Below are positions 3,001 through 21,478 of a stretch of DNA of 64,000 nucleotides, piece by piece (the stretch's first letter is position 1; the number at the start of each line of letters is the position of its first letter). A model generated the notes under the pieces. That model saw nothing but the letters and a program-made list of their open reading frames with translations. It was not told the DNA's origin and did no database searches. The position numbers and the translations under genes were made by a program. This DNA is from Dehalococcoidia bacterium UBA5748 (lineage in GTDB: Bacteria; Chloroflexota; Dehalococcoidia; Dehalococcoidales; UBA5627), in NCBI GenBank assembly GCA_002419135.1, contig DIFM01000026.1:5381-69380 (forward strand), in the 5' to 3' direction.

Positions 3001-4335
3001 ATGGCAAAAGTTTGTGACAATAAATATAATACCAGGTCGAGATTTTCTGTTGTAATAGAAAATTTCCTGGCAAAAGAATCTCTGAGCGGTACTTTTTTGT
3101 TCGGCGCCGCTCTGATTGCAATGGTGTGGGCAAACTCATTTCTTGCCGGAGCCTACTTCGATTTGTGGAATACCCATATCAGCCTTGGCATCGGCAGTCA
3201 TGCTATCGATATGAGCCTGGGGCACTGGATAAACGACGGGTTGATGGCGCTCTTTTTCCTGCTCATCGGGCTTGAGATAAAACGCGAAATGATGGTCGGA
3301 GAGCTTTCATCTCTCAGGCAGGCGGCTTTCCCGGTGGTAGCAGCTATCGGCGGAGTAACCCTGCCGGCTATTTTTTATATACTGATTAACATGCAGCCGG
3401 GCGGGCAAATGTCCGGTTTTGCCATTCCGATGGCAACCGATATCGCCTTTGTGCTCGGTTTTTTATTAATACTGGGTAGCCGGGTCCCGCTGTCTTTAAA
3501 AATATTCATTACCTCCATTGCCGTGGTAGATGACCTGGTTGCTATTGCCGTGATTGCCATTTTTTATACCGGTTCCATTGACTTTACATCGCTGGGATAT
3601 GCGGCGATAGTGATTGCCGCTCTGGTGTTGATGAACCGTACCGGTATTAAAAAGCTGATGCCGTACCTGCTGTTGGGCATCGTGCTCTGGTTCTTCGTTG
3701 AATCCTCCGGTATTCACGCTACTATTGCCGGTGTGGCGCTGGCGTTGACGATTCCGGTTCGTTCCCGTATCAGCGGGAGTCAGTTCTTAAATGTGTGCAG
3801 TGTCGAGTTAGCTGATTTCAAACAGGAAGAAGATAATCGCAAAAGCATACTTCTAACTTCACGGCAGCAGGATGCCCTTGAAGAGGTTCAAGATGCCTAC
3901 GATGCGGTACAGAATCCTCTGGTGCGTCTGGAACACCAGTTGCACCCGTTTAGTGCTTTTATAGTAATGCCTATTTTTGCGCTGGCGAATGCCGGCGTTC
4001 AGATTTCGGGTGTGGAGTTTTCAATTTTGCAGCCGGTAACGCTGGGTATAATACTGGGGCTTGTTTTTGGGAAACCGCTGGGAATTATAGGTTTTACCTA
4101 TATCGCCTCCCGTTTTGGCTGGGTAAAAAAACCGGACACGCTCTCATGGCGGCATATAATCGGCGCCGGTTTGCTTTGCGGTGTCGGGTTTACAATGTCC
4201 ATATTTATCACAAACCTGGCCTTTGAGGATGCCGCTATGATTTCGCTTGCCAAACTCACCATCGTTGCCTGTTCTTTGCTTATGGGAATTATCGGGGTAC
4301 TCTATCTGCGGCGTGCCTGTAAAGAGAACAATTAG
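3001..4335 (+). CDS. nhaA: Na+/H+ antiporter NhaA
   Basis: 444 aa, collinear with E. coli NhaA (WINDGLMALFFLLIGLEIKRE, ATDIAF, VVDDL, HATIAGV). Confidence 0.92.
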   Translation: MAKVCDNKYNTRSRFSVVIENFLAKESLSGTFLFGAALIAMVWANSFLAGAYFDLWNTHISLGIGSHAIDMSLGHWINDGLMALFFLLIGLEIKREMMVGELSSLRQAAFPVVAAIGGVTLPAIFYILINMQPGGQMSGFAIPMATDIAFVLGFLLILGSRVPLSLKIFITSIAVVDDLVAIAVIAIFYTGSIDFTSLGYAAIVIAALVLMNRTGIKKLMPYLLLGIVLWFFVESSGIHATIAGVALALTIPVRSRISGSQFLNVCSVELADFKQEEDNRKSILLTSRQQDALEEVQDAYDAVQNPLVRLEHQLHPFSAFIVMPIFALANAGVQISGVEFSILQPVTLGIILGLVFGKPLGIIGFTYIASRFGWVKKPDTLSWRHIIGAGLLCGVGFTMSIFITNLAFEDAAMISLAKLTIVACSLLMGIIGVLYLRRACKENN

Positions 4336-4397
4336 CCATTAGTTGCTGCATAATCGGTCAAAACGTAGCGGCAGTCATATATTAGCGCAAAATGCTC

Positions 4398-4426
4398 TTG
4401 TTAAGTCTCTGATATTATGTTATTAT
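4398..4426 (+). promoter_or_regulatory. possible sigma-70 promoter of recA (TTGTTA-N17-TATTAT)
   Basis: Hexamers read by eye 16 nt upstream of the recA ATG. No SOS-box-like palindrome seen. Confidence 0.25.
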
Positions 4427-4441
4427 GGCGATAGGCGAATT

Positions 4442-5455
4442 ATGGTCACAGAAAAAGAAAAAGCACTGGAACTGGCTGTCGGTCAGATAGAAAAACAATT
4501 CGGCAAGGGCTCGATTATGAAGCTCGGCGAAGCTTTTAATAAGCCGGCAGTCGAAGCTATTCCCAGTGGTTCGCTGGCACTAGATATCGCTTTAGGTGTA
4601 GGGGGTATCCCCAGAGGAAGGATTACAGAGGTATTCGGTCCCGAGGGGTCTGGAAAAACCACACTGGGTCAGCATATAATTGCCCAGGCTCAACAACGCG
4701 GAGGTACTGCCGCATATATAGATGTCGAGCACGCGCTCGACCCTGCTTACGCAGCCAAATGCGGAGTAAATCTTGAAGATCTTTTAATTTCACAGCCTGA
4801 TACGGGTGAAGAAGCGCTTGAAATTTGTGAAGCGCTGGTAAGAAGCGGAGCTCTTGATGTAATCGTTATTGACAGCGTTGCCGCCCTGGTTCCGAGAGCG
4901 GAAATCGAGGGGGAAATGGGCGATGCTCACGTTGGATTACAGGCCAGATTAATGTCACAGGCGCTGCGAAAACTGACGGCGGCTATCGGCAGGTCGGGAA
5001 CCGCGGTAATCTTCATCAACCAGCTGCGAGAGAAAGTGGGCATTATATTCGGAAACCCGGAGGTAACACCGGGCGGGCGGGCTTTGAAGTTCTACAGCTC
5101 TGTCAGGATAGACCTGAGAAGAGTAGAAACAATCAAGCAGGGTAATACCGCTACCGGTACGCATGTTAAAGCTAAAGTGGTTAAGAACAAGGTTGCCCCT
5201 CCCTTTAGAGTAGCCGAATTCGACATTATGTTCGATTCGGGTATAAGCAAAGAGGGCAATATAGTTGATCTGGGTGTCGCGGCGGATATAATAAAGAAAT
5301 CCGGGGCTTTTTACTCATATGGTGACATTCGTCTGGGACAAGGTAGAGAGAGCGCCAAGAAATATCTGAAGGACAATCCCGAACCGGCTATCGAGATTGA
5401 ACAGAAGATAAGAGCCTCGGCCGTCACCGGATTCAATGTTTCTAACGATGATTGA
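4442..5455 (+). CDS. recA: recombinase RecA
   Basis: Start moved to Met34 of the ORF ([26 protein letters not shown]). Walker A is GPEGSGKTT, and the protein is RecA-like throughout. Confidence 0.95.
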
Positions 5456-5503
5456 CCCGTCATGATTTGATGAGTTAATAGAAATAAGATAACCGGGCGT
5501 GAT

Positions 5504-5530
5504 AGAGCTGAGGCAGGTTGCCTCGGCTCT
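5504..5530 (+). terminator. hairpin between recA and recX (possible attenuating terminator)
   Basis: agagctgaggc / gcctcggctct stem with one G-U pair, followed by gcttgttt. The T-run is weak. Confidence 0.35.
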
Positions 5531-5557
5531 GCTTGTTTATAAGGGGTAACCTGTTAA

Positions 5558-6232
5558 ATGAGTAAGATATCCGGTTTGATTAAAGGCTCCGGTCGCGGTA
5601 AAACAATCAGGTTGTTTTTAGACGGTAAGTTTGCCTTCAGCCTGCAGGAAGAGGTTGTTTTAAACGAAAGGCTCGAGGTGGGTACGGAGTTGTCCCAACT
5701 CCGCATCGAATCTTTGCGGGAGAACAACCGTTATCAAAAATGCCTCGATACAGCCTTACGGCTTCTCAGTTACAGGCCCCGTAGTGAACGCGAGATAACC
5801 ATGCGCTTGCAGCAGCGCGGCTTTTGCGAAAAAGATATTCAAGCCGCCTTATCCAATCTTAAGAAAATTGGCCTTATCAATGACAAGGATTTTGCCCGCT
5901 TCTGGAGGGATGACAGGCAATCTTTCAATCCGCGCAGCCGCAAAATGACGGAAAGGGAGCTCAGGCAAAAGGGAGTTTCGCTCGATATTATTGAAGATGA
6001 GGTAAGCTCTATTGATGATACTTCAAATGCTTACCGGGCGGCGCTTAAATATGCCCGCAATTTAAATACTGCTGATTACCCGGGCTTTCGCCGTCGTTTG
6101 GGGGAATACCTGAGACGGCGCGGCTTTGGTTATGATGTCATAAACGCTACTGTTACACGTTTATGGAATGAAAGAGAGAGGGGTGAGGCGGTTGACTTTT
6201 CTGAAGCTCAATCAAGAAGCGAAGGATATTAA
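5558..6232 (+). CDS. recX: recombination regulator RecX
   Basis: 224 aa directly downstream of recA. Repeated three-helix RecX modules (LSYRPRSEREI..., KDFARFW...). Confidence 0.85.
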   Translation: MSKISGLIKGSGRGKTIRLFLDGKFAFSLQEEVVLNERLEVGTELSQLRIESLRENNRYQKCLDTALRLLSYRPRSEREITMRLQQRGFCEKDIQAALSNLKKIGLINDKDFARFWRDDRQSFNPRSRKMTERELRQKGVSLDIIEDEVSSIDDTSNAYRAALKYARNLNTADYPGFRRRLGEYLRRRGFGYDVINATVTRLWNERERGEAVDFSEAQSRSEGY

Positions 6233-6281
6233 CCGTCCGTCGACACCCGGACCTAAAAATAATATAGGAGGAATATAATAA

Positions 6282-7820
6282 ATGGGTATTACAGAGATAT
6301 TAGCTATATTTTTTAGCTTTGTAATCGGTGTTATATTTGGCGGAATGGCTATGTTTCTCTCAAGAAGTATGCTAGCAAATCACCAGATTCGCATCGCCCA
6401 AAGAAAAGCAGCCAAGATACTGGCGGAAGCCAGAACTGAGGCAAAAGATATTCTGGATGAGAACAAGAAAGAAATAGACAAGCTTAAATTAATGAATGAA
6501 GCCGAATACAAGGAGAGAAGAGCGGAAATACAGAGACAGGAAAATCGGCTGACACAAAAGGAATCATCGCTCGAACACAAGCTGGAAGATGCCGTTGGGC
6601 GCGAACGCAATCTGATTGCAAAAGAGAAAGAACTGGAGTCTATTAAAGACAATCTGGCTGAGGTAAAAGAAAATCAGTTGAAACAACTCGAACTGATTTC
6701 AAGCCTGACCAGCGATGAAGCCAAGCAGATGCTTTTAGACAAAGTCGAGGTTGAAATCCAGGAAGAAGCGGGACGACGTCTTCGCGATTGGGAAATTAAA
6801 ATCAAAGAAGAAGCGGACGAGAAAGCGCGCGGCATTTTATCGCATGTAATACAGCGCAGCGCCTCGGAAATCGTATCCGAAACCACTGCCAGCGTTGTCA
6901 ACATACCCAATGATGAGATGAAAGGCAGGCTTATCGGCAGGGAAGGCCGCAATATCCGTGCTTTGGAACAGGCGACCGGTGTCGACCTTATAATCGACGA
7001 CACACCGGAAGCGGTAACCATATCGAGCTTCGACCCGGTACGCCGTGAAATTGCCTATCAAGCCCTTAGTAAACTGATTTTGGACGGACGTATCCATCCG
7101 GCGCGTATCGAAGAAATCGTTGCCAAGACCAAAGAGGAAGTTGAAACAGCTATGGTACAGGCCGGAGAGCAGGCTGCTTTGCAGGTCGGTGTTACCAGGC
7201 TGCACCCCGAGCTTATCAAGCTGCTGGGGAGGCTGAAATATAGAACCAGTTACGGTCAGAATGTGCTGGCTCACAGCATCGAGGTTGCCCACTTTTCGGG
7301 GATGATAGCAGCTGAACTGGGTGTAAATGTAGCCCTGGCAAAGCGTGCCGGGCTGTTGCACGATATCGGCAAGGCGGTCGACCGTGAAATAGAGGGTACG
7401 CATGCCGCTATCGGCGCTGACCTTGTGAAACAATGGGATAAATCCAAGGAAGTTGTCAAGGGTGTAGCCGAACACCATATGGAAACCGGCGATACCAGCA
7501 TCTGGGGCTTTATAGTCTCAGCGGCAGACGCTATTTCAAGTGCCAGGCCGGGTGCCAGGCGCGAATCCCTCGAGAACTATCTCAAACGTTTGAAATCTCT
7601 GGAAGAAATTGCCGATGGGTTCAAGGGTGTCGATAAATCGTATGCCATTCAGGCCGGACGCGAAGTGCGTATACTGGTCAAACCGGATGAGGTTGATGAT
7701 TTATCCGCAATGAGGCTTGCCCGTGATATCGTCAAGAAAATTGAGGACAGTCTCGAGTACCCGGGTCAAATCCGAGTGATTGTCCTGCGCGAAACCAGGG
7801 CTATTGATTACGCTAAATAG
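6282..7820 (+). CDS. rny: ribonuclease Y
   Basis: 512 aa with an N-terminal TM helix, a long coiled coil, a KH domain ([15 protein letters not shown]) and an HD domain (LLHDIGKA). Confidence 0.93.
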
Positions 7821-14857: not shown

Positions 14858-15895
14858 ATGGAAAAGATAAAAGTTGGGATTGTGAATGTTACCGGCTATG
14901 CCGGCATAGAATTAGCCCGATTGCTGGTACGGCATCCGGCTGCCCGGCTTGTTTCGGTTACCGGCAGAAGCTCCGCCGGACAAAAGCTGGCCGATGTTTT
15001 TCCGCATATGACGGGCGCTGCCGACCTTATCATAGAATCCGAACTTTCTGATGTCGATTTCGCTTTTGTAGCCATGCCCCATAAGGAGAGCGCGCTGGAA
15101 GTGATGAAACTTATCGAACGCGGTATTAAAGTGGTGGATATCAGCGCCGATTTCCGTTTAAGCAACCCCGAGGATTATAACGAATGGTATGGTTTTACCC
15201 ATCCCTCACCGGAGCTGTTGGATAAGGCGGTTTACGGGCTGCCCGAGCTGTATCGTAAAGATATTGAATCGGCCAATCTGGTAGCCAATCCCGGCTGTTA
15301 TCCCACCGCCGCTATACTGGCTATGGCTCCGGCAGTCAAGCAAGGCATCATTTCTGAAGATATCATCATCGACAGCAAATCGGGGCTATCCGGCGCCGGC
15401 AGAACTCTGACTACCGTCAGCCACTATTCGGAAGCAAACGAAAACACCGCTGCTTATGCCTTGAAAGGGCATCGCCATCTGCCGGAAATCGTACAGGAAC
15501 TCACTTATCTTAATGGCGAAACGGTAAATGTAACCTTCGTTCCTCACATTGTTCCGATGACCCGCGGTATTTTATCCACCTGCTATGCTGCTTTAAGGGA
15601 GGAGTTTGTCGAGAAGGAAGATATTCAGGTAGAAATCAACGCTATCTACAAGGAATTTTATAAGGATGCGCCTTTTGTTAAGGTAGTCGATAATCCACCG
15701 CATACCAAGAATGTCTGGGGCAGTAATATGTGCCATATCTATCCGTTCGTCGATACGAGGACAGGCCGTCTTATAGTCATTAGCTGTATAGATAATCTGG
15801 TAAAGGGCGCGGCCGGACAGGCCATTCAGAATATGAATATCATGTCGGGTTTTGCCGAAACTGCCGGTCTGGAAGCCCCGCCTATATATCCGTAA
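14858..15895 (+). CDS. argC: N-acetyl-gamma-glutamyl-phosphate reductase
   Basis: 345 aa. N-terminal Rossmann motif VGIVNVTGYAGIEL and active-site NPGCYPTA. Confidence 0.93.
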   Translation: MEKIKVGIVNVTGYAGIELARLLVRHPAARLVSVTGRSSAGQKLADVFPHMTGAADLIIESELSDVDFAFVAMPHKESALEVMKLIERGIKVVDISADFRLSNPEDYNEWYGFTHPSPELLDKAVYGLPELYRKDIESANLVANPGCYPTAAILAMAPAVKQGIISEDIIIDSKSGLSGAGRTLTTVSHYSEANENTAAYALKGHRHLPEIVQELTYLNGETVNVTFVPHIVPMTRGILSTCYAALREEFVEKEDIQVEINAIYKEFYKDAPFVKVVDNPPHTKNVWGSNMCHIYPFVDTRTGRLIVISCIDNLVKGAAGQAIQNMNIMSGFAETAGLEAPPIYP

Positions 15896-15908
15896 AAACT
15901 CTTCTTAT

Positions 15909-16265
15909 ACCCTCATCCGTCATATAGATATGCCACCTTCCCCCGGGGGAAGGCATTTTTCGTAGGGGCGACCATTGGTCGTCCGCCCACCACCATCGAG
16001 ATTCAGTGTAACAATCACTCTTAAAAATAACATGTATTCAAATAAAAAATCGTATTAAATCCCCTCTGACTCCCCTTTCCCAAAGTGGAGGAAACGGTCA
16101 TATTCTATCAGGAAAGGAAGATGACAATCGGATTAATCCCTGCGTGGTTCGGCAAGTTCAATATAGTAAATGTCATTCTGAGGAAGTATTACGACCGAAG
16201 AATCTATACAGTTATCGTATGGTGAATAGATCCTTCACTGCGTTCAGGATGACATTTCTGTATTA
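15909..16265. repeat. non-coding region packed with at least four short repeat types
   Basis: accctcatccg...tgccaccttcccccgggggaaggca (also at 19937-20001). Also present: ggggcgaccattggtcgtccgcc, gtcattctgaggaag...cgaccgaagaatc and gatccttcactgcgttcaggatgaca. Confidence 0.75.
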
Positions 16266-16370
16266 CGTGTTACTTAATAAAAAACTGTTTTCTGGCGTTA
16301 TTCAAAAAAATATTAGTGCCACTTAATGGTCACAATGATAAAAAAACATATGCACCAGCACAGGTTCAAT

Positions 16371-16748
16371 TCAGGAATAGATATCTCTTTTTCTTAAAAG
16401 CTTTAGAGAAATGAATCCCAGTATGCCGGAAATAAGGTATGGAAAACTAAGTATGCTCCACATACCGATATTATCCCATGTACTACTATCAGAAAGCACC
16501 CATATGGCTGTTCCTGCAATTAACGAGTTGACAATGAAGAGCACACTGGAAGCCAACGGTCTCTTCCATGACAGGATGATGCCCGATAACCCGATTATTA
16601 TTATCACCAGCCCAAATATATGGATTGTCCCAAAGTCATGAGGCCACCTGTATCCCCCCAACAGAAATCCTGCTATCAGCCCCCAGCTGATTAATATTGT
16701 TACAAGTGATGTTAAAATGAGACCTATCCAAATCAAGGTCTTTGCCAT
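16371..16748 (-). CDS. small integral membrane protein
   Basis: 125 aa with four predicted hydrophobic helices. Last gene of the minus-strand trio 18523-16371. Confidence 0.55.
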   Translation of the reverse strand: MAKTLIWIGLILTSLVTILISWGLIAGFLLGGYRWPHDFGTIHIFGLVIIIIGLSGIILSWKRPLASSVLFIVNSLIAGTAIWVLSDSSTWDNIGMWSILSFPYLISGILGFISLKLLRKRDIYS

Positions 16749-16759
16749 GCATGTACCCC

Positions 16760-17665
16760 CTAAAATCCTTTTCTGGCATCGACGTATTGAATGAATATGG
16801 ATGGATTACCATCGAGTGTATCCAGATATTCCCCTTCAAAGACATATACAGGGTATACATAATCCTGGGCTTGTGTCATCGAATCCAGATAATATCCAAG
16901 CGATACTTCAGTTATCCTGACATCCCGGCCTTCTCCCATTCCCAGAGGCTGCAGCATCAGTCGATTATTAATGAGGTCCTGATAAGCCTGTTGTGCGGTC
17001 TTTAACGAAACAGCCATATCGGTTTTTTCATATTCCGCATGATACCAGTGAACCTGTACTACTTCGCCACCATCACCAATCCTGACACTCATTTTTTTAC
17101 CGATTACTGCTGCCGGGAAATCGCCGATATCATAATCAAAGACAACCGACAGATGGGCAACTCCATAGTAATAAGTGCCTCCTGCCACAACCTCCTTAAC
17201 CCGGATATCAGGAGTGAGCAGTCCCTTATCGGCCAGGAATTTTATTGCAATATCCTCCGCTGTTTTATCATCGGGAAGAGATGGCTTTTCAGCCGGATAC
17301 AGCTTTTTCATACTTGTATGGTACAAAATTGCTCCTGTTTCAGTTGCCATCTCAAGACCTTCATCGGTATATTTATTTTTTAGAAAATAGAGGTCAGAAC
17401 CATCGTTAAAGTCTACTGAAGGTTCGAAAACTCCAAACCAGTTACCAATATTCAGGGCGTACTCTTCGGTAACGTCAGGATGTTTTATCCGGTATACCGG
17501 CACAGTATCAGGCGTATCGGGCAGAGAGGTGTCAAGTTGGTAATTGTTGTTCATCCATCCCAATTGATTTGATACCATCTCCAATGGTTGTGAGCAGCCG
17601 CTTGTCCCTAACAAGCTGGCGGTCATTAATAAGGTAACTAATATTACAGTAATATATCTTTTCAT
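16760..17665 (-). CDS. lipoprotein, unknown function
   Basis: Start moved to MKRYITVILVTLLMTASLLGTSGC (signal peptide plus lipobox Cys), preceded by AGGAG. The rest has no recognised family. Confidence 0.65.
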   Translation of the reverse strand: MKRYITVILVTLLMTASLLGTSGCSQPLEMVSNQLGWMNNNYQLDTSLPDTPDTVPVYRIKHPDVTEEYALNIGNWFGVFEPSVDFNDGSDLYFLKNKYTDEGLEMATETGAILYHTSMKKLYPAEKPSLPDDKTAEDIAIKFLADKGLLTPDIRVKEVVAGGTYYYGVAHLSVVFDYDIGDFPAAVIGKKMSVRIGDGGEVVQVHWYHAEYEKTDMAVSLKTAQQAYQDLINNRLMLQPLGMGEGRDVRITEVSLGYYLDSMTQAQDYVYPVYVFEGEYLDTLDGNPSIFIQYVDARKGF

Positions 17666-17725
17666 GATTGTTACTCCTTGACAGATTGTTCTTTTTATCC
17701 TAACAGCATATATCATGTCTGATTA

Positions 17726-18523
17726 TTAGAGCGGATAATCTATGCTATAATAGTCCCCATCAGGTTCTAAATCAGCTTGGGTGTCCCCAAAGCCCCAAAT
17801 ACAATCATCAAAATAGCACTCTTCTTCAAAAATAATTCTTAAATTCGTTCCGGATGGTTGTGTCCAAGAACAGCCCCAAAACCATGCATCTGCAACACTC
17901 TCCCCAGAACACAAATACTCAGCGATTCGCGTTCCTGCTGTAGTATGTCCATACATTGAGGTAGACGCACCACAAATCATATGGACTCCATCTAAAGCCT
18001 GCGCAAACTTGCCGTTTGATTTTTGGTAGTTATCAGAGGCAGCGTTATCTCCCATCAATGTATTACAGGCAAATAGCATCACCCACTCTAAGTCGGTTTC
18101 TCCCCACTGTGCTTCCAGATAATCAACTGTATTACTGTTGCCCAAAGGATTTTGATCGTTTACAAGCGGTATATAATCTTCGCCGCCGTGACCGCAAAAG
18201 AAGAATAGATCGACCCCGTCGGCACTATCATTGTCATTGTCGACGAAAGGCCCCTCTTCATCAATATCATGGTGAATAAAATTCCGCTGCCACGGATAAT
18301 AATTATCCAGATAATTCACGAAACCAACGGTTACATCTTCGGTTATGGGGCGATCCCCCCAAGGAATACCTAGCCAGCATTGATAGTCCGCATTATAAAT
18401 ACCGCCAACTTCAATTAATCCATCATCATCCTCCACAGCTAGTGCCAATGCACTTTCACCTGCACCGATGGATAAAACGAGAGCCATGATTAGTGAAAGG
18501 ATTATCGTTCTTTTCTTATACAT
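17726..18523 (-). CDS. secreted protein with caspase-fold-like His/Cys dyad
   Basis: 265 aa with an N-terminal signal peptide. A hydrophobic strand plus GHGG (LFFFCGHGG) is followed, about 47 residues later, by a hydrophobic strand plus AC (VMLFACN). Confidence 0.6.
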   Translation of the reverse strand: MYKKRTIILSLIMALVLSIGAGESALALAVEDDDGLIEVGGIYNADYQCWLGIPWGDRPITEDVTVGFVNYLDNYYPWQRNFIHHDIDEEGPFVDNDNDSADGVDLFFFCGHGGEDYIPLVNDQNPLGNSNTVDYLEAQWGETDLEWVMLFACNTLMGDNAASDNYQKSNGKFAQALDGVHMICGASTSMYGHTTAGTRIAEYLCSGESVADAWFWGCSWTQPSGTNLRIIFEEECYFDDCIWGFGDTQADLEPDGDYYSIDYPL

Positions 18524-18727
18524 TCATCTTTTCCTCACTTGCCATACTCCATAAAGCCTGTTTGTTAATCTTCATAACTAGCCTTTCCTAATTACCTGTC
18601 TAATATGATAGACGGAATAGAGGAGTAAAAAGTTCCACTTTTCTTTGAAAACCTCTATTATTTGGATTGGGTAACAGGGTTTAATCTTAAAGTGTTACAA
18701 TAAAGACTATTAAAACAACATTTAGCT

Positions 18728-19288
18728 TTGGATAAAATGGACGATGTAGAAGAAAGTAAGCTAATTGGGCTAAGTCAGCAAGGAAGCGTAGATGCATTCA
18801 ACGCACTCATAGAATGCTACCAGAAAGAAGCCTTAAAGATAGCTTTTCGTATACTGGGCAATTTGTCGGATGCGGAAGATGTTTGCCAGACCGCATGGAT
18901 GTCTGCCTGGAAATCTATTAAAAATTTTCGAGGGGGCAGCTTTCGGGCATGGATATTCAGCATAGTAGCCAACGCTTGCCGGGATGAATTACGTAAACGT
19001 AAGCGAAAGCGAAACATGGAAACAAGTATTCCCGATTGTCCACTGCCGTCTACAGACGTTCTTACAGATGACATAGTTTTGACCCGAGAAAAGGTAGAAG
19101 CTGTTCAGAAAGCATTACTCCGGTTGCCTTACGAACAACGCCTGGCTGTGATTTTACGTGTATATGTAGACATGAATTATAAAGAAATATCCAAAGTGAT
19201 GAAATGTCCTTTAGGTACCGTCAGGTCGAGATTGAACCGGGGATTACATCGTTTAAGAGACCTTTTACGAGACGGAGAATGTTTGTAA
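18728..19288 (+). CDS. ECF-type RNA polymerase sigma factor
   Basis: 186 aa. Region 2 is AEDVCQTAWMSAW...FRAWIFSIVANACRD and region 4 is NYKEISKVMKCPLGTVRSRLNRG. TTG start; alternative ATG at 18737. Confidence 0.88.
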   Translation: MDKMDDVEESKLIGLSQQGSVDAFNALIECYQKEALKIAFRILGNLSDAEDVCQTAWMSAWKSIKNFRGGSFRAWIFSIVANACRDELRKRKRKRNMETSIPDCPLPSTDVLTDDIVLTREKVEAVQKALLRLPYEQRLAVILRVYVDMNYKEISKVMKCPLGTVRSRLNRGLHRLRDLLRDGECL

Positions 19289-19337
19289 AAAGACGGTTTT
19301 AAAATTATACTCGAAATATAAGTCGAGGATTTAAGGA

Positions 19338-19808
19338 ATGAAAACCTGGTTTAAACGCTTTTATAAAACAGAATGCTCGAGGACAAGAGAGCAGCTGACA
19401 TCGTATCTCGATGGCGAGCTTGGTGCAAAAGAGCTACAGGAATTGGAACTACATCTCAAGTCCTGCCGGACATGCCGTGAAGAATACGACTCACTCAGGC
19501 AGACGATAGGCCTTTTGCGGCAGATGCCGGAAGTAAGCTCCGAACGTACTTTTAGAATAGATGAAAAGAATGTTACGACGAAACCTGGCGATAGAAAGCT
19601 CTTAATTCTTTATAGGGCCGTAGCCGGGGTTGCCATTATTCTGGCATTGGTTTGTATCGGGGATTTCGGGCATTTATTTATGCCAACAGGGGAGTCGCCG
19701 TTAGGAGGCTATCCCTGGTTAGTAAGAGGAATTGAGCTAGGACTATTTGTTATTTTAGGCGCATTAGGGCTTCGCATTCTTATCCACCTGTTTAGACGAC
19801 GGAAGTAA
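19338..19808 (+). CDS. anti-sigma factor (zf-HC2 type), membrane anchored
   Basis: 156 aa. HLKSCRTCREEY is a putative zinc-finger motif, with two C-terminal TM helices. Lies immediately after the ECF sigma gene. Confidence 0.75.
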   Translation: MKTWFKRFYKTECSRTREQLTSYLDGELGAKELQELELHLKSCRTCREEYDSLRQTIGLLRQMPEVSSERTFRIDEKNVTTKPGDRKLLILYRAVAGVAIILALVCIGDFGHLFMPTGESPLGGYPWLVRGIELGLFVILGALGLRILIHLFRRRK

Positions 19809-19936
19809 CGGATTAAAATAGCGTACTTTCATTTCCTGTTAACAAGTGGCTGTGAAAATCAGGCTAATTCCCCCTATTTTGCTAACGGATGGCGAATAAT
19901 AAGGCAATACTATACAATAACAAAAATCATTCTTCA

Positions 19937-20132
19937 ACCCTCATCCGGCATCCCGAATTTTCGGTATGCCACCTTCCCCCGGGGGAAGGCGTTTTCGTGG
20001 GGAAGACCGGGAACATGAGTCCCGATTTATCGGGAAAGAGATTGTAGAGCGGGAATCATATTGATGATTTCGTCGCCGTTATGGTTCGACAGGCTCATCA
20101 CGAACGGCTAAAAAAAGCTCACCACGAACGGC
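19937..20132. repeat. intergenic repeat block
   Basis: Second copy of accctcatccg...ccaccttcccccgggggaaggc, a cccgatttatcggg hairpin, and a third copy of the 57-nt element (20076-20132). Confidence 0.8.
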
Positions 20133-20197
20133 TTTCGTGATTTTCTTTCCATAAACAATTGATTGGCCGCCTTCCTTCTGCTATGCTTTAGTCTGCA

Positions 20198-21478
20198 ATG
20201 ACACAGAAACAGGATAACCCGGGAATTACCCCCCGCTCTTTCGGCAAGTGGGATTATCTCAAAATCACCATACTGGTCTTTTCCACCACAGGCCTGTGGC
20301 AGTCGATGCACTCTCTCATCCTCCCCATCAGAATCCTCGATTTTGCCCCCGAAGCGGAAAAAAACACCTATCTCGGCTTAATGACCTTTGTCGGTCTGAT
20401 TATTGCCATGTTACTCCAGCCTGTCTTCGGAGCCATCAGCGACCGTTCGGGTTTCCGTATGGGAAAACGCCGACCCTTCATAATCATCGGCGCACTGTGT
20501 CTTTTACTGTTTTTGCCCGGTATCGGGCTTGCCGGCAGCTATGCGGTGATATTTGCCATCTACTGCGTGATGCAAATCTCCAGCAATGCCGTGCAGGGGG
20601 CGCACCAGGGCTTCATTCCCGACATGGTTCCCGAAGGTAAAAAAGGGCAGGCCTCCGGTATAAAGAGCTTTGTGGAGATGCTGGGCGGTGTTATCCTTAT
20701 CTACATCATCGGTAAATTGATGGATAACTACGCCGCCGGTGATGGAGACCAATGGCTATGGCTATCCCTTTTAATCCCGGGAATTATTTTATTTGTCTGT
20801 ATGCTGGTAACGGTCTTTACCGTGAAGGAGGACAGCGGAAATAAAAACTCCCCGTTTTCGATAAAAGATGTTATCCGCAACACCTTTAAAATCGATATCG
20901 GGATGAACCGCGGGTTTTTATGGTTTCTGGCTTCACGGCTGTTCTTTTTTGCCGGTCTGGGAATAATCCAGCAATTTTCATTGTATTTTTTAATGTACCT
21001 TGGGGTGCCCGACCCGGCATCCGCTGCGGCGAGATTCCTTATCCTGGCGGTAGTCGGTATGCTGATAGTCGTTTATCCGGCCGGTAGATTATCGGATAAA
21101 ATCGGTCGCAAACCGATTGCCATAACATCGGCTTTTATCGGGGCTTTCGGTGTACTTCTGATAATCTTAACCAAGGACTACAACATGATAATGGTCGCCG
21201 CCGGATTTATCGGGGTGGCGCTTGGAGGGTTTACCAGCACGAACTGGGCGATGGCTATCGATATGGTCCCTGCTGGTGAAGAAGCGCGCTATCTCGGAAT
21301 TGCCAATATGGCAACCGCCGGAGCGGGCGCGTTGGCACGCCTTATAGGTCCCGTTATCGACTTCTTTGAAAAACAGAGTTTGGGGCTTGGATACCAGGTA
21401 ATGCTGTTTACCTGCCTGGTCTTTTTTATAGTTGGCGGATTGATTCTGCTGCGTATTAAGGAGAAGATTACCCGATAA
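20198..21478 (+). CDS. MFS transporter
   Basis: 426 aa with about 12 TM helices and loop motifs SDRSGFRMGKRRPF and GRLSDKIGRKP. Confidence 0.88.
   Translation: MTQKQDNPGITPRSFGKWDYLKITILVFSTTGLWQSMHSLILPIRILDFAPEAEKNTYLGLMTFVGLIIAMLLQPVFGAISDRSGFRMGKRRPFIIIGALCLLLFLPGIGLAGSYAVIFAIYCVMQISSNAVQGAHQGFIPDMVPEGKKGQASGIKSFVEMLGGVILIYIIGKLMDNYAAGDGDQWLWLSLLIPGIILFVCMLVTVFTVKEDSGNKNSPFSIKDVIRNTFKIDIGMNRGFLWFLASRLFFFAGLGIIQQFSLYFLMYLGVPDPASAAARFLILAVVGMLIVVYPAGRLSDKIGRKPIAITSAFIGAFGVLLIILTKDYNMIMVAAGFIGVALGGFTSTNWAMAIDMVPAGEEARYLGIANMATAGAGALARLIGPVIDFFEKQSLGLGYQVMLFTCLVFFIVGGLILLRIKEKITR

Follow-up and report, generated by a model that had tools for sequence, protein, structure and literature searches.

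The putative lipoprotein encoded beside an exported caspase-like protein in Dehalococcoidia bacterium UBA5748 is the cognate partner domain of that protein, and this pairing is the main new finding of our analysis of the window (the whole 64-kb stretch of DNA in which the genes lie). The exported protein belongs to DUF6345, an uncharacterized family that we predict to consist of caspase-fold cysteine peptidases. The linkage was counted over 78 genome loci from archaea, Chloroflexota, Actinomycetota, and Deinococcota, and in 74 of these the partner is tied to DUF6345: it is the next gene in 36, is fused to DUF6345 in 35, and forms part of a frameshift-split fusion in 3. We call this linkage obligate, and it backs the functional tie between lipoprotein and peptidase that had been proposed from the DNA alone. 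The original prediction, which joined a secreted protease and its lipoprotein and membrane partners to a sigma/anti-sigma pair, is partly supported: its interpretation was largely right, yet the trio with its sigma factor is lineage specific, and it is the peptidase-partner pair that is conserved as a unit.

Organization of the locus

All five open reading frames of the block were found where they had been placed. The minus strand carries the genes for the secreted DUF6345 protein (positions 17726..18523; 265 amino acids [aa]), the partner lipoprotein (16760..17665; 301 aa), and a small membrane protein (16371..16748; 125 aa). Divergent from them, on the plus strand, are the genes for an ECF (group IV) sigma factor (18728..19288; 186 aa, or 183 aa from the ATG at 18737 that gene callers choose) and a zf-HC2 anti-sigma factor (19338..19808; 156 aa), the latter beginning 49 nucleotides (nt) past the sigma stop. 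Hydropathy analysis agreed with the membrane and export features first described: the exported protein has a single hydrophobic segment, at its N terminus, and so does the lipoprotein; the 125-aa protein has four such segments and the anti-sigma factor has two. The gaps within the minus-strand set had been given as 9 to 11 nt. The 11 nt between the lipoprotein and membrane protein genes stand, but the peptidase-to-lipoprotein gap is 60 nt when measured from the lipoprotein start at 17665, which has an AAGGAG Shine-Dalgarno sequence and is chosen by every gene caller; a gap of 9 nt arises only with an unlikely upstream ATG at 17716 as the start.

The repeat-rich flanks noticed on both sides of the block are real. 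A direct repeat of ~85 nt, comprising a perfect 18-nt palindrome and a T-run, stands at either end on the plus strand: the left copy (15894..15982) directly follows argC, and the right copy (19922..20010) lies ~115 nt after the anti-sigma gene. Each resembles a terminator hairpin, and the window has no copies beyond these two, where chance alone would give none.

The exported protein and its predicted fold

The 265-aa protein matches Pfam DUF6345 (PF19872) with 101.6 bits (E = 5.8e-29; gathering threshold, 26.9 bits), and the same family is matched by 56/56 of its aligned homologues. It carries a Sec-type signal peptide (KKR, a hydrophobic core, and ALA/VE), and an N-terminal hydrophobic segment is found in 44 of 56 short peptidases. 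The AF2 model, with 56 homologues in the alignment (pLDDT 90, pTM 0.84), predicts the alpha/beta/alpha sandwich and six-stranded sheet of the caspase-hemoglobinase (clan CD) fold, with a His112/Cys153 dyad. The best 50 PDB matches listed by Foldseek for this model all belong to clan CD (50/50) and include SAVED-CHAT, caspases 1/3/11, and gingipain R, with E values from 3e-5 to 8e-3 and TM-scores that are modest among the matches listed (0.31 to 0.51). Moreover, the top matches in the viral library BFVD were caspase, metacaspase, or clostripain proteins. The model and these matches bear out the caspase-like fold that had been suspected from two short motifs.

The translation contains both motifs, LFFFCGHGG (His112) and VMLFACN (Cys153), and the strands are predicted to run in the order beta1-alpha-beta2-beta3(His)-beta4(Cys)-beta5-alpha-alpha-beta6. 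H112 is located just past the predicted strand 106-110 (FFFCG-H112-G) and C153 just past the adjacent strand 147-151 (MLFA-C153), the two residues being separated by 41 positions and not by the ~47 originally estimated. As anticipated, they are conserved in homologues: among 154 diverse family sequences, H112 and C153 each reach 99% conservation, alongside G141 (100%), W147 (99%), and D105 (97%), and in 65 loci, each from another species, H112, C153, D102, D105, D144, E146, and W147 are invariant. The family comprises 743 clusters at 50% identity and is concentrated in archaea, where it is common in methanogens, and in Dehalococcoidia, Actinomycetota, and Deinococcota.

The modest TM-scores count against this reading, and so does the sequence evidence: neither the window protein nor any of the 56 homologues reached the curated threshold of any clan CD Pfam family. 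The window peptidase scores 12 bits against Peptidase_C25 (E = 0.12; cut-off, 23 bits), and matches among the 56 homologues were to Peptidase_C14 (6 members; best E = 1.7e-4), C25 (3 members; 0.11), and CHAT (2 members; 0.11). Membership in these three families was rejected and, since all the scores are subthreshold, we treat DUF6345 as a separate family. A profile search of PDB sequences with the peptidase family returned no match.

The partner domain

The partner consists of an N-terminal anchor followed by an extracytoplasmic alpha/beta domain of ~270 aa, and the hydrophobic anchor is present in 23/23 partner proteins examined. The window protein, with the lipobox LLGTSG/C (sequence MKRYITVILVTLLMTASLLGTSG/C), fits the bacterial lipoprotein pattern and is putatively lipidated. 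The lipobox Cys is retained in the Dehalococcoidales orthologues L008, L089, L090, and L091, and a plain membrane anchor takes the place of the lipobox in the archaeal homologues. The partner is the sole recurrent neighbor of the DUF6345 module. Its domain occurs in 52 of 81 long family representatives, on either side of DUF6345 in the fusions, and many relatives carry the DUF6345-partner unit inside surface proteins of 700 to 1800 aa with Ig, PKD, fn3, beta-helix, and GEVED domains.

Pfam holds no family model for this domain. The window partner matched neither YycI nor FTP, and the matches among the 23 members (YycI, 6/23; FTP, 5/23; DUF4901, 2/23) were weak, all falling below gathering scores. 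The best homologue scores were 24.6 bits for YycI (PF09648; threshold, 29.7; E = 2.3e-5 over 190 residues) and 20.6 bits for FTP (PF07504; threshold, 21), and assignment to either family was rejected on these thresholds. A PDB profile search with the partner was negative, and no internal repeat was detected in it.

Sigma factor, anti-sigma factor, and candidate promoter

The sigma factor is of the ECF (group IV) type, with the ~180-200-aa size of that group and with sigma2 and sigma4 regions only (Sigma70_r2, E = 1e-20; r4_2, E = 2e-13; TIGR02937 sigma70-ECF, E = 4e-30, 104.6 bits, cut-off 42.9). It fell far short of every named sigma equivalog, scoring 116 bits for SigW versus a cut-off of 209. 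The anti-sigma factor matches zf-HC2 (PF13490; E = 2.6e-10; 40.6 bits versus a cut-off of 22.2) and, being encoded directly downstream of the sigma factor and containing the motif H39-x3-C43-x2-C46, is a ZAS protein. Its hydrophobic segments span residues 86-118 and 127-153, leaving an external loop of roughly 10 residues or fewer.

A search of positions 18524-18727 for an ECF-type -35/-10 pair, as had been suggested, located GGAAC-N17-CGTC on the minus strand (18611..18636), facing the trio ~85 nt upstream of the peptidase start codon. The window contains this motif and one other match, with ~1.1 expected per 128 kb (both strands), and the chance of its falling in the 204-nt spacer on the minus strand is ~0.002. 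As a 29-nt stretch, it is retained in the relatives L007, L011, and L089; conservation does not single it out, because the entire spacer is ~85-90% conserved among the three. Its elements and spacing agree with the ECF pattern of GGAAC and CGT(C) set ~16-17 nt apart, and we regard it as a candidate promoter for the adjacent sigma factor. Upstream of the sigma gene, a housekeeping-type extended -10 (TGTTACAAT; 18693..18701, plus strand) was read from the sequence and is conserved in L007 and L011; it is tentative, because a consensus scan did not list the match. The region ahead of the sigma gene showed no second promoter of the ECF type. The sigma/anti-sigma switch probably drives the peptidase operon, and envelope stress may be the inducing signal.

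Distribution of the module

Outside close relatives in the Dehalococcoidales, neither the sigma pair nor the four-segment membrane protein accompanies the module. No sigma gene lies within 6 kb at the distant Dehalococcoidia loci L012, L018, and L090 or at any archaeal locus, and most DUF6345 family members have no sigma factor nearby. The co-conservation of trio and sigma pair that was originally expected breaks down beyond this narrow clade. Adjacency of a sigma factor and DUF6345 recurs independently in Actinomycetota: in the Solirubrobacteraceae, ~8 loci have a fused partner-DUF6345 gene with an ECF sigma gene immediately upstream. In the syntenic relative L089, the sigma pair, the promoter, the partner, and the membrane protein gene are all present and the peptidase gene is absent from the locus, suggesting that the partner has an independent role or that the module is decaying there.

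The 125-aa protein, first seen as a partner of the module, is likewise clade restricted. Homologues were confined to same-strain loci, to L089, and to L090, which carries two copies in tandem, and the protein is a lineage-specific accessory. It scored 21.1 bits against DUF7670 (PF24709; E = 4e-4), below the threshold of 29 bits. The homologue in L090 likewise has a DUF7670 match marked as weak.

Discussion

We consider it reasonably likely that the block is an ECF switch coupled to a divergent operon for a secreted DUF6345 peptidase, its tethered partner, and a four-helix membrane protein, in which the partner gates the peptidase. Once the sigma factor is freed from its membrane anti-sigma factor, the three-gene envelope operon would be transcribed from the GGAAC-N17-CGTC promoter. 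Its first product would be exported by Sec and secreted as a cysteine peptidase, its second would hold the partner domain lipid anchored on the outside of the membrane, and its third would be the small four-helix membrane protein of this lineage only. The secreted peptidase would dock onto the tethered partner, which would retain it at the cell surface and gate it in the manner of a prodomain or cap provided in trans; the peptidase would then cut cell-envelope or extracellular proteins. On a broader scale, there is an outside chance that DUF6345 and its partner form an unrecognized, ancient two-component extracytoplasmic caspase-fold system of archaea and several bacterial phyla, in which the partner, acting in trans or by fusion, serves as a regulatory cap while the enzyme matures or remodels surface proteins. 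Under this reading, the enzyme of ECF-wired lineages might even feed back on the short external loop of the anti-sigma factor as a site-1 protease.

The evidence of fold and dyad would fit equally well a transpeptidase/sortase-like or self-processing enzyme that matures or attaches surface proteins, with the partner as its membrane adaptor. The clan CD members PorU, GPI8, and MARTX CPD (PMC4357240) have such roles, the embedding of DUF6345-partner units in large surface proteins is reminiscent of autoprocessing modules, and the taxonomic concentration of the family is also in keeping with this reading. We nevertheless find it unlikely: no candidate sorting-signal substrates lie near the module, where the partner alone recurs, and hydrolysis and transpeptidation are not told apart in silico. 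A caspase-fold domain devoid of catalysis, such as a pseudo-enzyme or binding module, is an extremely unlikely reading of the DUF6345 protein. Activity or biochemical data on DUF6345 members were not found in the searchable literature, but the dyad and its flanking Gly/Asp residues are near-invariant across the 743 clusters, as would be expected of an active site, and the protein is presumably catalytic.

The L089 locus, with an identical promoter and a precisely absent peptidase ORF, could also mean that the core of the operon is the lipoprotein and the four-helix protein, for instance as a YycI-like envelope sensor/regulator, with the peptidase as a dispensable accessory or partner maturase. 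Among its weak family matches, the partner fits YycI best, and YycI is an extracytoplasmic regulator anchored in the membrane. That match, however, is below the Pfam cut-off, the partner almost never stands apart from DUF6345 in the 78 loci, with 35 covalent fusions, and the L089 genome may hold a DUF6345 copy elsewhere, all of which makes this arrangement distinctly unlikely. It is improbable, too, that the sigma/anti-sigma pair adjoins the operon by coincidence and that this sigma factor does not control it. The sigma pair is missing at most DUF6345 loci, those of other Dehalococcoidia included, and chance alone would place about one GGAAC-N15-18-CGTC in a stretch as long as the window; yet here the motif sits in the expected intergenic spacer, on the proper strand, and at a plausible distance, is retained in three relatives, and finds a counterpart in the independent actinomycetotal adjacency. 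Finally, the 4-kb block between argC and the MFS gene might be a mobile islet, with the ~85-nt repeats as attachment-site remnants. The repeats flank exactly the five genes, 4036 nt apart, GC content falls to 0.36-0.39 at the left edge, and the distant modules L090 and L018 adjoin recombinase- or transposase-like ORFs. This is highly improbable, as no integrase or transposase lies within or beside the block, L089 has the same genes in the same place without the repeats, and the repeats fit terminators of a dispersed repeat family, since each is a hairpin with a T-run downstream of a plus-strand gene.

The preferred reading, a secreted peptidase gated by its partner, recalls the gingipains (MEROPS C25) and legumain (C13), which are likewise secreted or extracytoplasmic, with a His/Cys dyad in a caspase-hemoglobinase fold; gingipain R (1cvr and 4ief) is among the Foldseek matches. 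In those enzymes, a separate prodomain gates activity; gingipains have it at the N terminus and legumain at the C terminus (PMC4357240), and the DUF6345 partner similarly stands on either side in fusions. In contrast to them, DUF6345 has no above-threshold sequence similarity to Peptidase_C25, and its partner is unrelated in sequence to their prodomains and is usually a separate membrane-anchored protein, with a putative inhibitory function. PrtH (MEROPS C84) is a further cysteine peptidase secreted by a bacterium; its fold is predicted to be caspase-like, it is specific for Arg, and it has no structure (PMC4357240, PMC4404884), and a 536-aa, 60.4-kDa protein annotated as DUF6345 occurs in the outer-membrane vesicles of T. 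forsythia (PMC10682907).

The best structural matches of the peptidase are of the SAVED-CHAT and Craspase TPR-CHAT kind (8tl0, E = 3e-5; 7y8t; 7xsr). Defense CHAT/caspase proteases are cytoplasmic and nucleotide or RNA activated, whereas the DUF6345 protein has a signal peptide and no sensor domain, and none of the five proteins matched PADLOC; an anti-phage defense caspase/CHAT system was rejected on the signal peptide and the PADLOC result. The regulatory genes resemble the Bacillus SigW-RsiW type in their sigma2 and sigma4 regions, H-x3-C-x2-C membrane anti-sigma factor, and GGAAC...CGTC promoter before an envelope operon, but the window anti-sigma factor combines two membrane helices with hardly any external domain, and the sigma factor is far below the SigW cut-off. 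The partner shares with YycI and FTP/PepSY-type modules an N-terminal anchor and an extracytoplasmic domain, along with the weak, subthreshold matches; FTP is a propeptide motif of secreted M4/M36 peptidases.

Clan CD, which includes caspases, gingipains, legumain, separase, and CHAT proteases, contains major regulators and virulence factors, and a further family would offer a tractable prokaryotic model for the extracellular gating of caspase-fold enzymes. The partner domain merits a family model of its own, and the Dehalococcoidales locus provides a defined genetic switch (sigma factor, anti-sigma factor, and promoter) for tracing the inducing signal. As a lead only, FDF being of ~60 kDa, the DUF6345 protein of T. 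forsythia may be PrtH/FDF. Were PrtH of T. forsythia to prove a member of DUF6345, the link to the partner domain would bear on a periodontal virulence factor as well.

The exported DUF6345 protein and clan CD

On the strength of its modeled fold and of its His-Cys dyad, we place the exported protein (265 aa; 17726-18523, minus strand) in clan CD, as a family of its own. It carries a Sec-type signal peptide and matches the Pfam family DUF6345 well over threshold, together with a chance-level hint of Peptidase_C25. An AlphaFold2 (AF2) model built with only five close homologues was discarded (pLDDT 36); the one built with 56 diverse homologues is confident (pLDDT 90, pTM 0.84), and its order of strands and helices agrees with the caspase-hemoglobinase fold. 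In this model, strand 106-110 is followed by His112 and strand 147-151 by Cys153, a spacing of 41 residues rather than the approximately 47 originally estimated. The top 50 Foldseek matches listed from the PDB are all clan CD enzymes, among them SAVED-CHAT (E = 3e-5), caspases 1, 3, 6, 7, 8, 9, and 11, Craspase CHAT, and gingipain R; top matches in the viral library are caspases of giant viruses, metacaspases, and one clostripain. The caspase-like fold proposed in the original prediction is thus supported by structural modeling.

The dyad is highly conserved. An exhaustive profile search (E ≤ 1e-3) recovered 743 DUF6345 clusters at 50% identity, and over the best 154 sequences, conservation reaches 100% for Gly141, 99% for His112, Cys153, and Trp147, 97% for Asp105, 94% for Asp102, 92% for Gly111, and 91% for His181. 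The His, the Cys, Asp102, Asp105, Asp144, Glu146, and Trp147 are invariant across an independent set that comprises 65 loci of different species.

The placement as a separate family follows from the modest TM-scores to clan CD structures (0.45 to 0.51), from the lack of any above-threshold match between the exported protein and clan CD families at the sequence level, and from the empty outcome of PDB chain searches by sequence and by profile. Subthreshold Pfam matches nevertheless recur among the 56 homologues (Peptidase_C14 in 6, C25 in 3, CHAT in 2). Alignment by hhalign of the family profile to human caspase-3 was not significant (probability 0.8%), with the His aligned and the Cys not; this result was left out of the evidence.

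A five-gene block with a candidate ECF promoter

All five open reading frames (ORFs) expected in the block were found. On the minus strand, the DUF6345 gene is accompanied by those of a 301-aa protein (16760-17665), whose signal peptide ends in LLGTSG|C, and of a 125-aa protein with four hydrophobic segments (4-TM; 16371-16748). The gap of 11 nt between the latter two is as described, but the gaps are not uniformly of 9 to 11 nt: 60 nt separate the DUF6345 gene from its neighbor with the start at 17665, which is chosen by all gene callers and preceded by an AAGGAG ribosome-binding site. On the plus strand, both domain assignments of the sigma/anti-sigma pair hold, although the gene callers start the sigma gene (18728-19288) at the ATG at 18737. 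The sigma factor, with its Sigma70_r2 and r4_2 domains, fits TIGR02937, the generic ECF model, but reaches none of the named equivalog models. In the anti-sigma (19338-19808), the zf-HC2 domain bears the motif H39-x3-C43-x2-C46, and two hydrophobic segments lie only a very short stretch apart. The same sequence as the window occurs in contig DMVL01000074.1 (assembly GCA_003476065.1), and close relatives are annotated as Dehalococcoidales. A cluster of three TatA/B/E paralogues and TatC lies a few kilobases from the module, beyond ~22.3 kb (3919-6211, reversed, in the related locus L001); the DUF6345 protein itself lacks a twin-arginine motif.

In the 204-nt divergent spacer (18524-18727), the strand that carries the peptidase operon contains the sequence GGAACTTTTTACTCCTCTATTCCGTCTAT (core 18611-18636), a candidate promoter of textbook ECF form, with GGAAC at -35, CGTC at -10, and a 17-nt spacing; the start codon follows ~85 nt downstream. 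A degenerate ECF pattern occurs twice in the window against approximately one occurrence expected by chance; for this spacer and strand, the chance expectation is ~0.002. The 29-nt motif is kept in L007 and L011, two loci with peptidases 79 to 82% identical, and in the syntenic relative L089, which adds only modest weight since the spacer as a whole is largely conserved. A second ECF-type promoter, for the sigma gene, was not found; upstream of this gene, only a housekeeping-like TGTTACAAT was read by eye, which is not among the elements listed by the consensus scan. In L007 (~2380-2445) and L011 (~4905-4970), the peptidase 5' untranslated region (5'UTR) carries a 64-nt insertion that includes a hairpin (AGGCCCTACCTTT...AAAGGTAGGGC) and is absent from the window, possibly a regulatory element or a repeat.

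Repeat-rich DNA does bound the block. A direct repeat of ~85 nt, containing a perfect palindrome, CCTTCCCCCGGGGGAAGG, and a T-run, is present in the window only at 15894-15982 and 19922-20010. Two hairpin repeats bracketing the block so neatly might suggest that the five genes originated as a mobile islet, but this is unlikely, since synteny is unchanged in L089, where the repeats, and any exact copy of the palindrome, are absent. The AT-rich noncoding spacer between argC and the 4-TM gene (15896-16370; 476 nt, versus 64 nt in L089) contains an inverted repeat, AAATGTCATTCTGA/TCAGGATGACATTT (16168-16181 and 16244-16257), that resembles a small dispersed repeat element. The spacer preceding the MFS gene holds a 17-nt near-duplicate in tandem, GCTCA(T/C)CACGAACGGCT (20093-20133), which coincides in part with hairpins of terminator-like form on both strands (stems 20121-20141). 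An Rfam scan of 15800-20300 yielded no RNA family and one chance-level match.

A cognate partner domain

The 301-aa "lipoprotein" is the cognate partner of the DUF6345 peptidase. Across 78 genome loci recovered by the family motif, its homologue is the next gene downstream of DUF6345 in 36, forms the N-terminal part of a fusion with DUF6345 in 35, and belongs to a frameshifted fusion in 3; of the remaining 4, 3 lie at contig ends. These loci come from archaea (the methanogens Methanoculleus, Methanoregulaceae, Methanothrix, and Methanoperedens, and Thor- and Bathyarchaeota) and from bacteria (Dehalococcoidia, Solirubrobacteraceae, other Actinomycetota, Meiothermus, and Trueperaceae). Of 81 family representatives chosen without bias and no shorter than 400 aa, 52 have the partner domain in the same chain; both domain orders are seen among them, and some fusions are embedded in proteins of 1000 to 1800 aa that also contain Ig, PKD, fn3, beta-helix, or GEVED domains. 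Clustering of neighboring ORFs over 80 loci revealed no third conserved component beyond lineage-specific synteny. Tandem expansion has occurred in Methanoregulaceae UBA467 (L015, 349-8727), where three DUF6345 and four partner genes follow one another, and two partner genes are present at each of the loci L030 and L046.

The partner matches no Pfam family and no PDB chain by sequence or profile search. Below threshold, scattered homologues match YycI (over 190 residues, with a best E of 2.3e-5), DUF4901, and the propeptide motif FTP. Profile self-comparison (E = 0.03 to 0.8) gave no support for a PepSY-like structure of tandem repeats. An N-terminal hydrophobic anchor is present in 23 of 23 partners examined, with the lipobox Cys kept in Dehalococcoidales and a plain membrane helix instead in archaea.

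Reach of the sigma-linked unit

Association of the module with the sigma pair is confined to a close clade (L001-L007, L011, and L089). No sigma gene lies within 6 kb of the distant Dehalococcoidia modules L012, L018, and L090 or of any archaeal module, and the 4-TM protein is restricted to the close clade and L090, where it is duplicated. The modules at L090 (1-3282) and L018 (3329-5329) adjoin ORFs that resemble serine recombinases and transposases, a hint that the module may have spread horizontally. In about eight mutually syntenic Solirubrobacteraceae loci (including L045, L060, L061, L067, L072, and L076; ~4100-6600), a fused signal-peptide/partner/DUF6345 gene is directly preceded, on its own strand, by an ECF sigma gene, with no recognizable zf-HC2 or other anti-sigma, and another actinomycete locus, L043, has a divergent sigma. 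This adjacency is independent of that in Dehalococcoidales.

Relation to known proteins and proposed mechanism

Because the FDF form of PrtH, a T. forsythia cysteine peptidase of MEROPS family C84, is ~60 kDa, DUF6345 may correspond to C84, a comparison by size. A word-indexed search for homologues yielded unnamed proteins only, and a cluster look-up gave only the name "DUF6345 domain-containing protein." In the literature searched, the sole mention of DUF6345 was in PMC10682907, which names it without comment for a 536-aa T. forsythia vesicle protein. Whether or not DUF6345 is C84, the predicted fold is not new in kind. Within this literature, three points are new: a partner domain that is nearly universal, its fusion in two orders, and explicit ECF wiring in the close Dehalococcoidales clade.

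A role in defense was rejected, since the protein has a signal peptide and PADLOC found no defense-system match. Two other readings remain live. DUF6345 might be a transpeptidase or an autoprocessing enzyme, consistent with its embedding in giant surface proteins. Alternatively, the function may center on the partner: in L089, a 492-kb contig with synteny identical to that of the window (Tat genes, VTT, MFS, anti-sigma, sigma, partner, 4-TM gene, argC), the peptidase ORF is precisely absent (5839-6080), the sigma pair and 4-TM gene are kept, and the conserved ECF promoter and 5'UTR lead straight into the partner gene.

The best-supported reading is that of an ECF-switched peptidase that is probably gated by its partner. 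Gating is suggested by the obligate linkage of the two, by the weak FTP/YycI similarity, and by fusion on either side, reminiscent of the prodomains of clan CD enzymes, which are N-terminal in gingipain and C-terminal in legumain (PMC4357240). The ECF switch would turn the operon on, and the exported peptidase would associate with the tethered partner, which would localize and probably gate it; envelope or extracellular proteins would be what the peptidase acts on.
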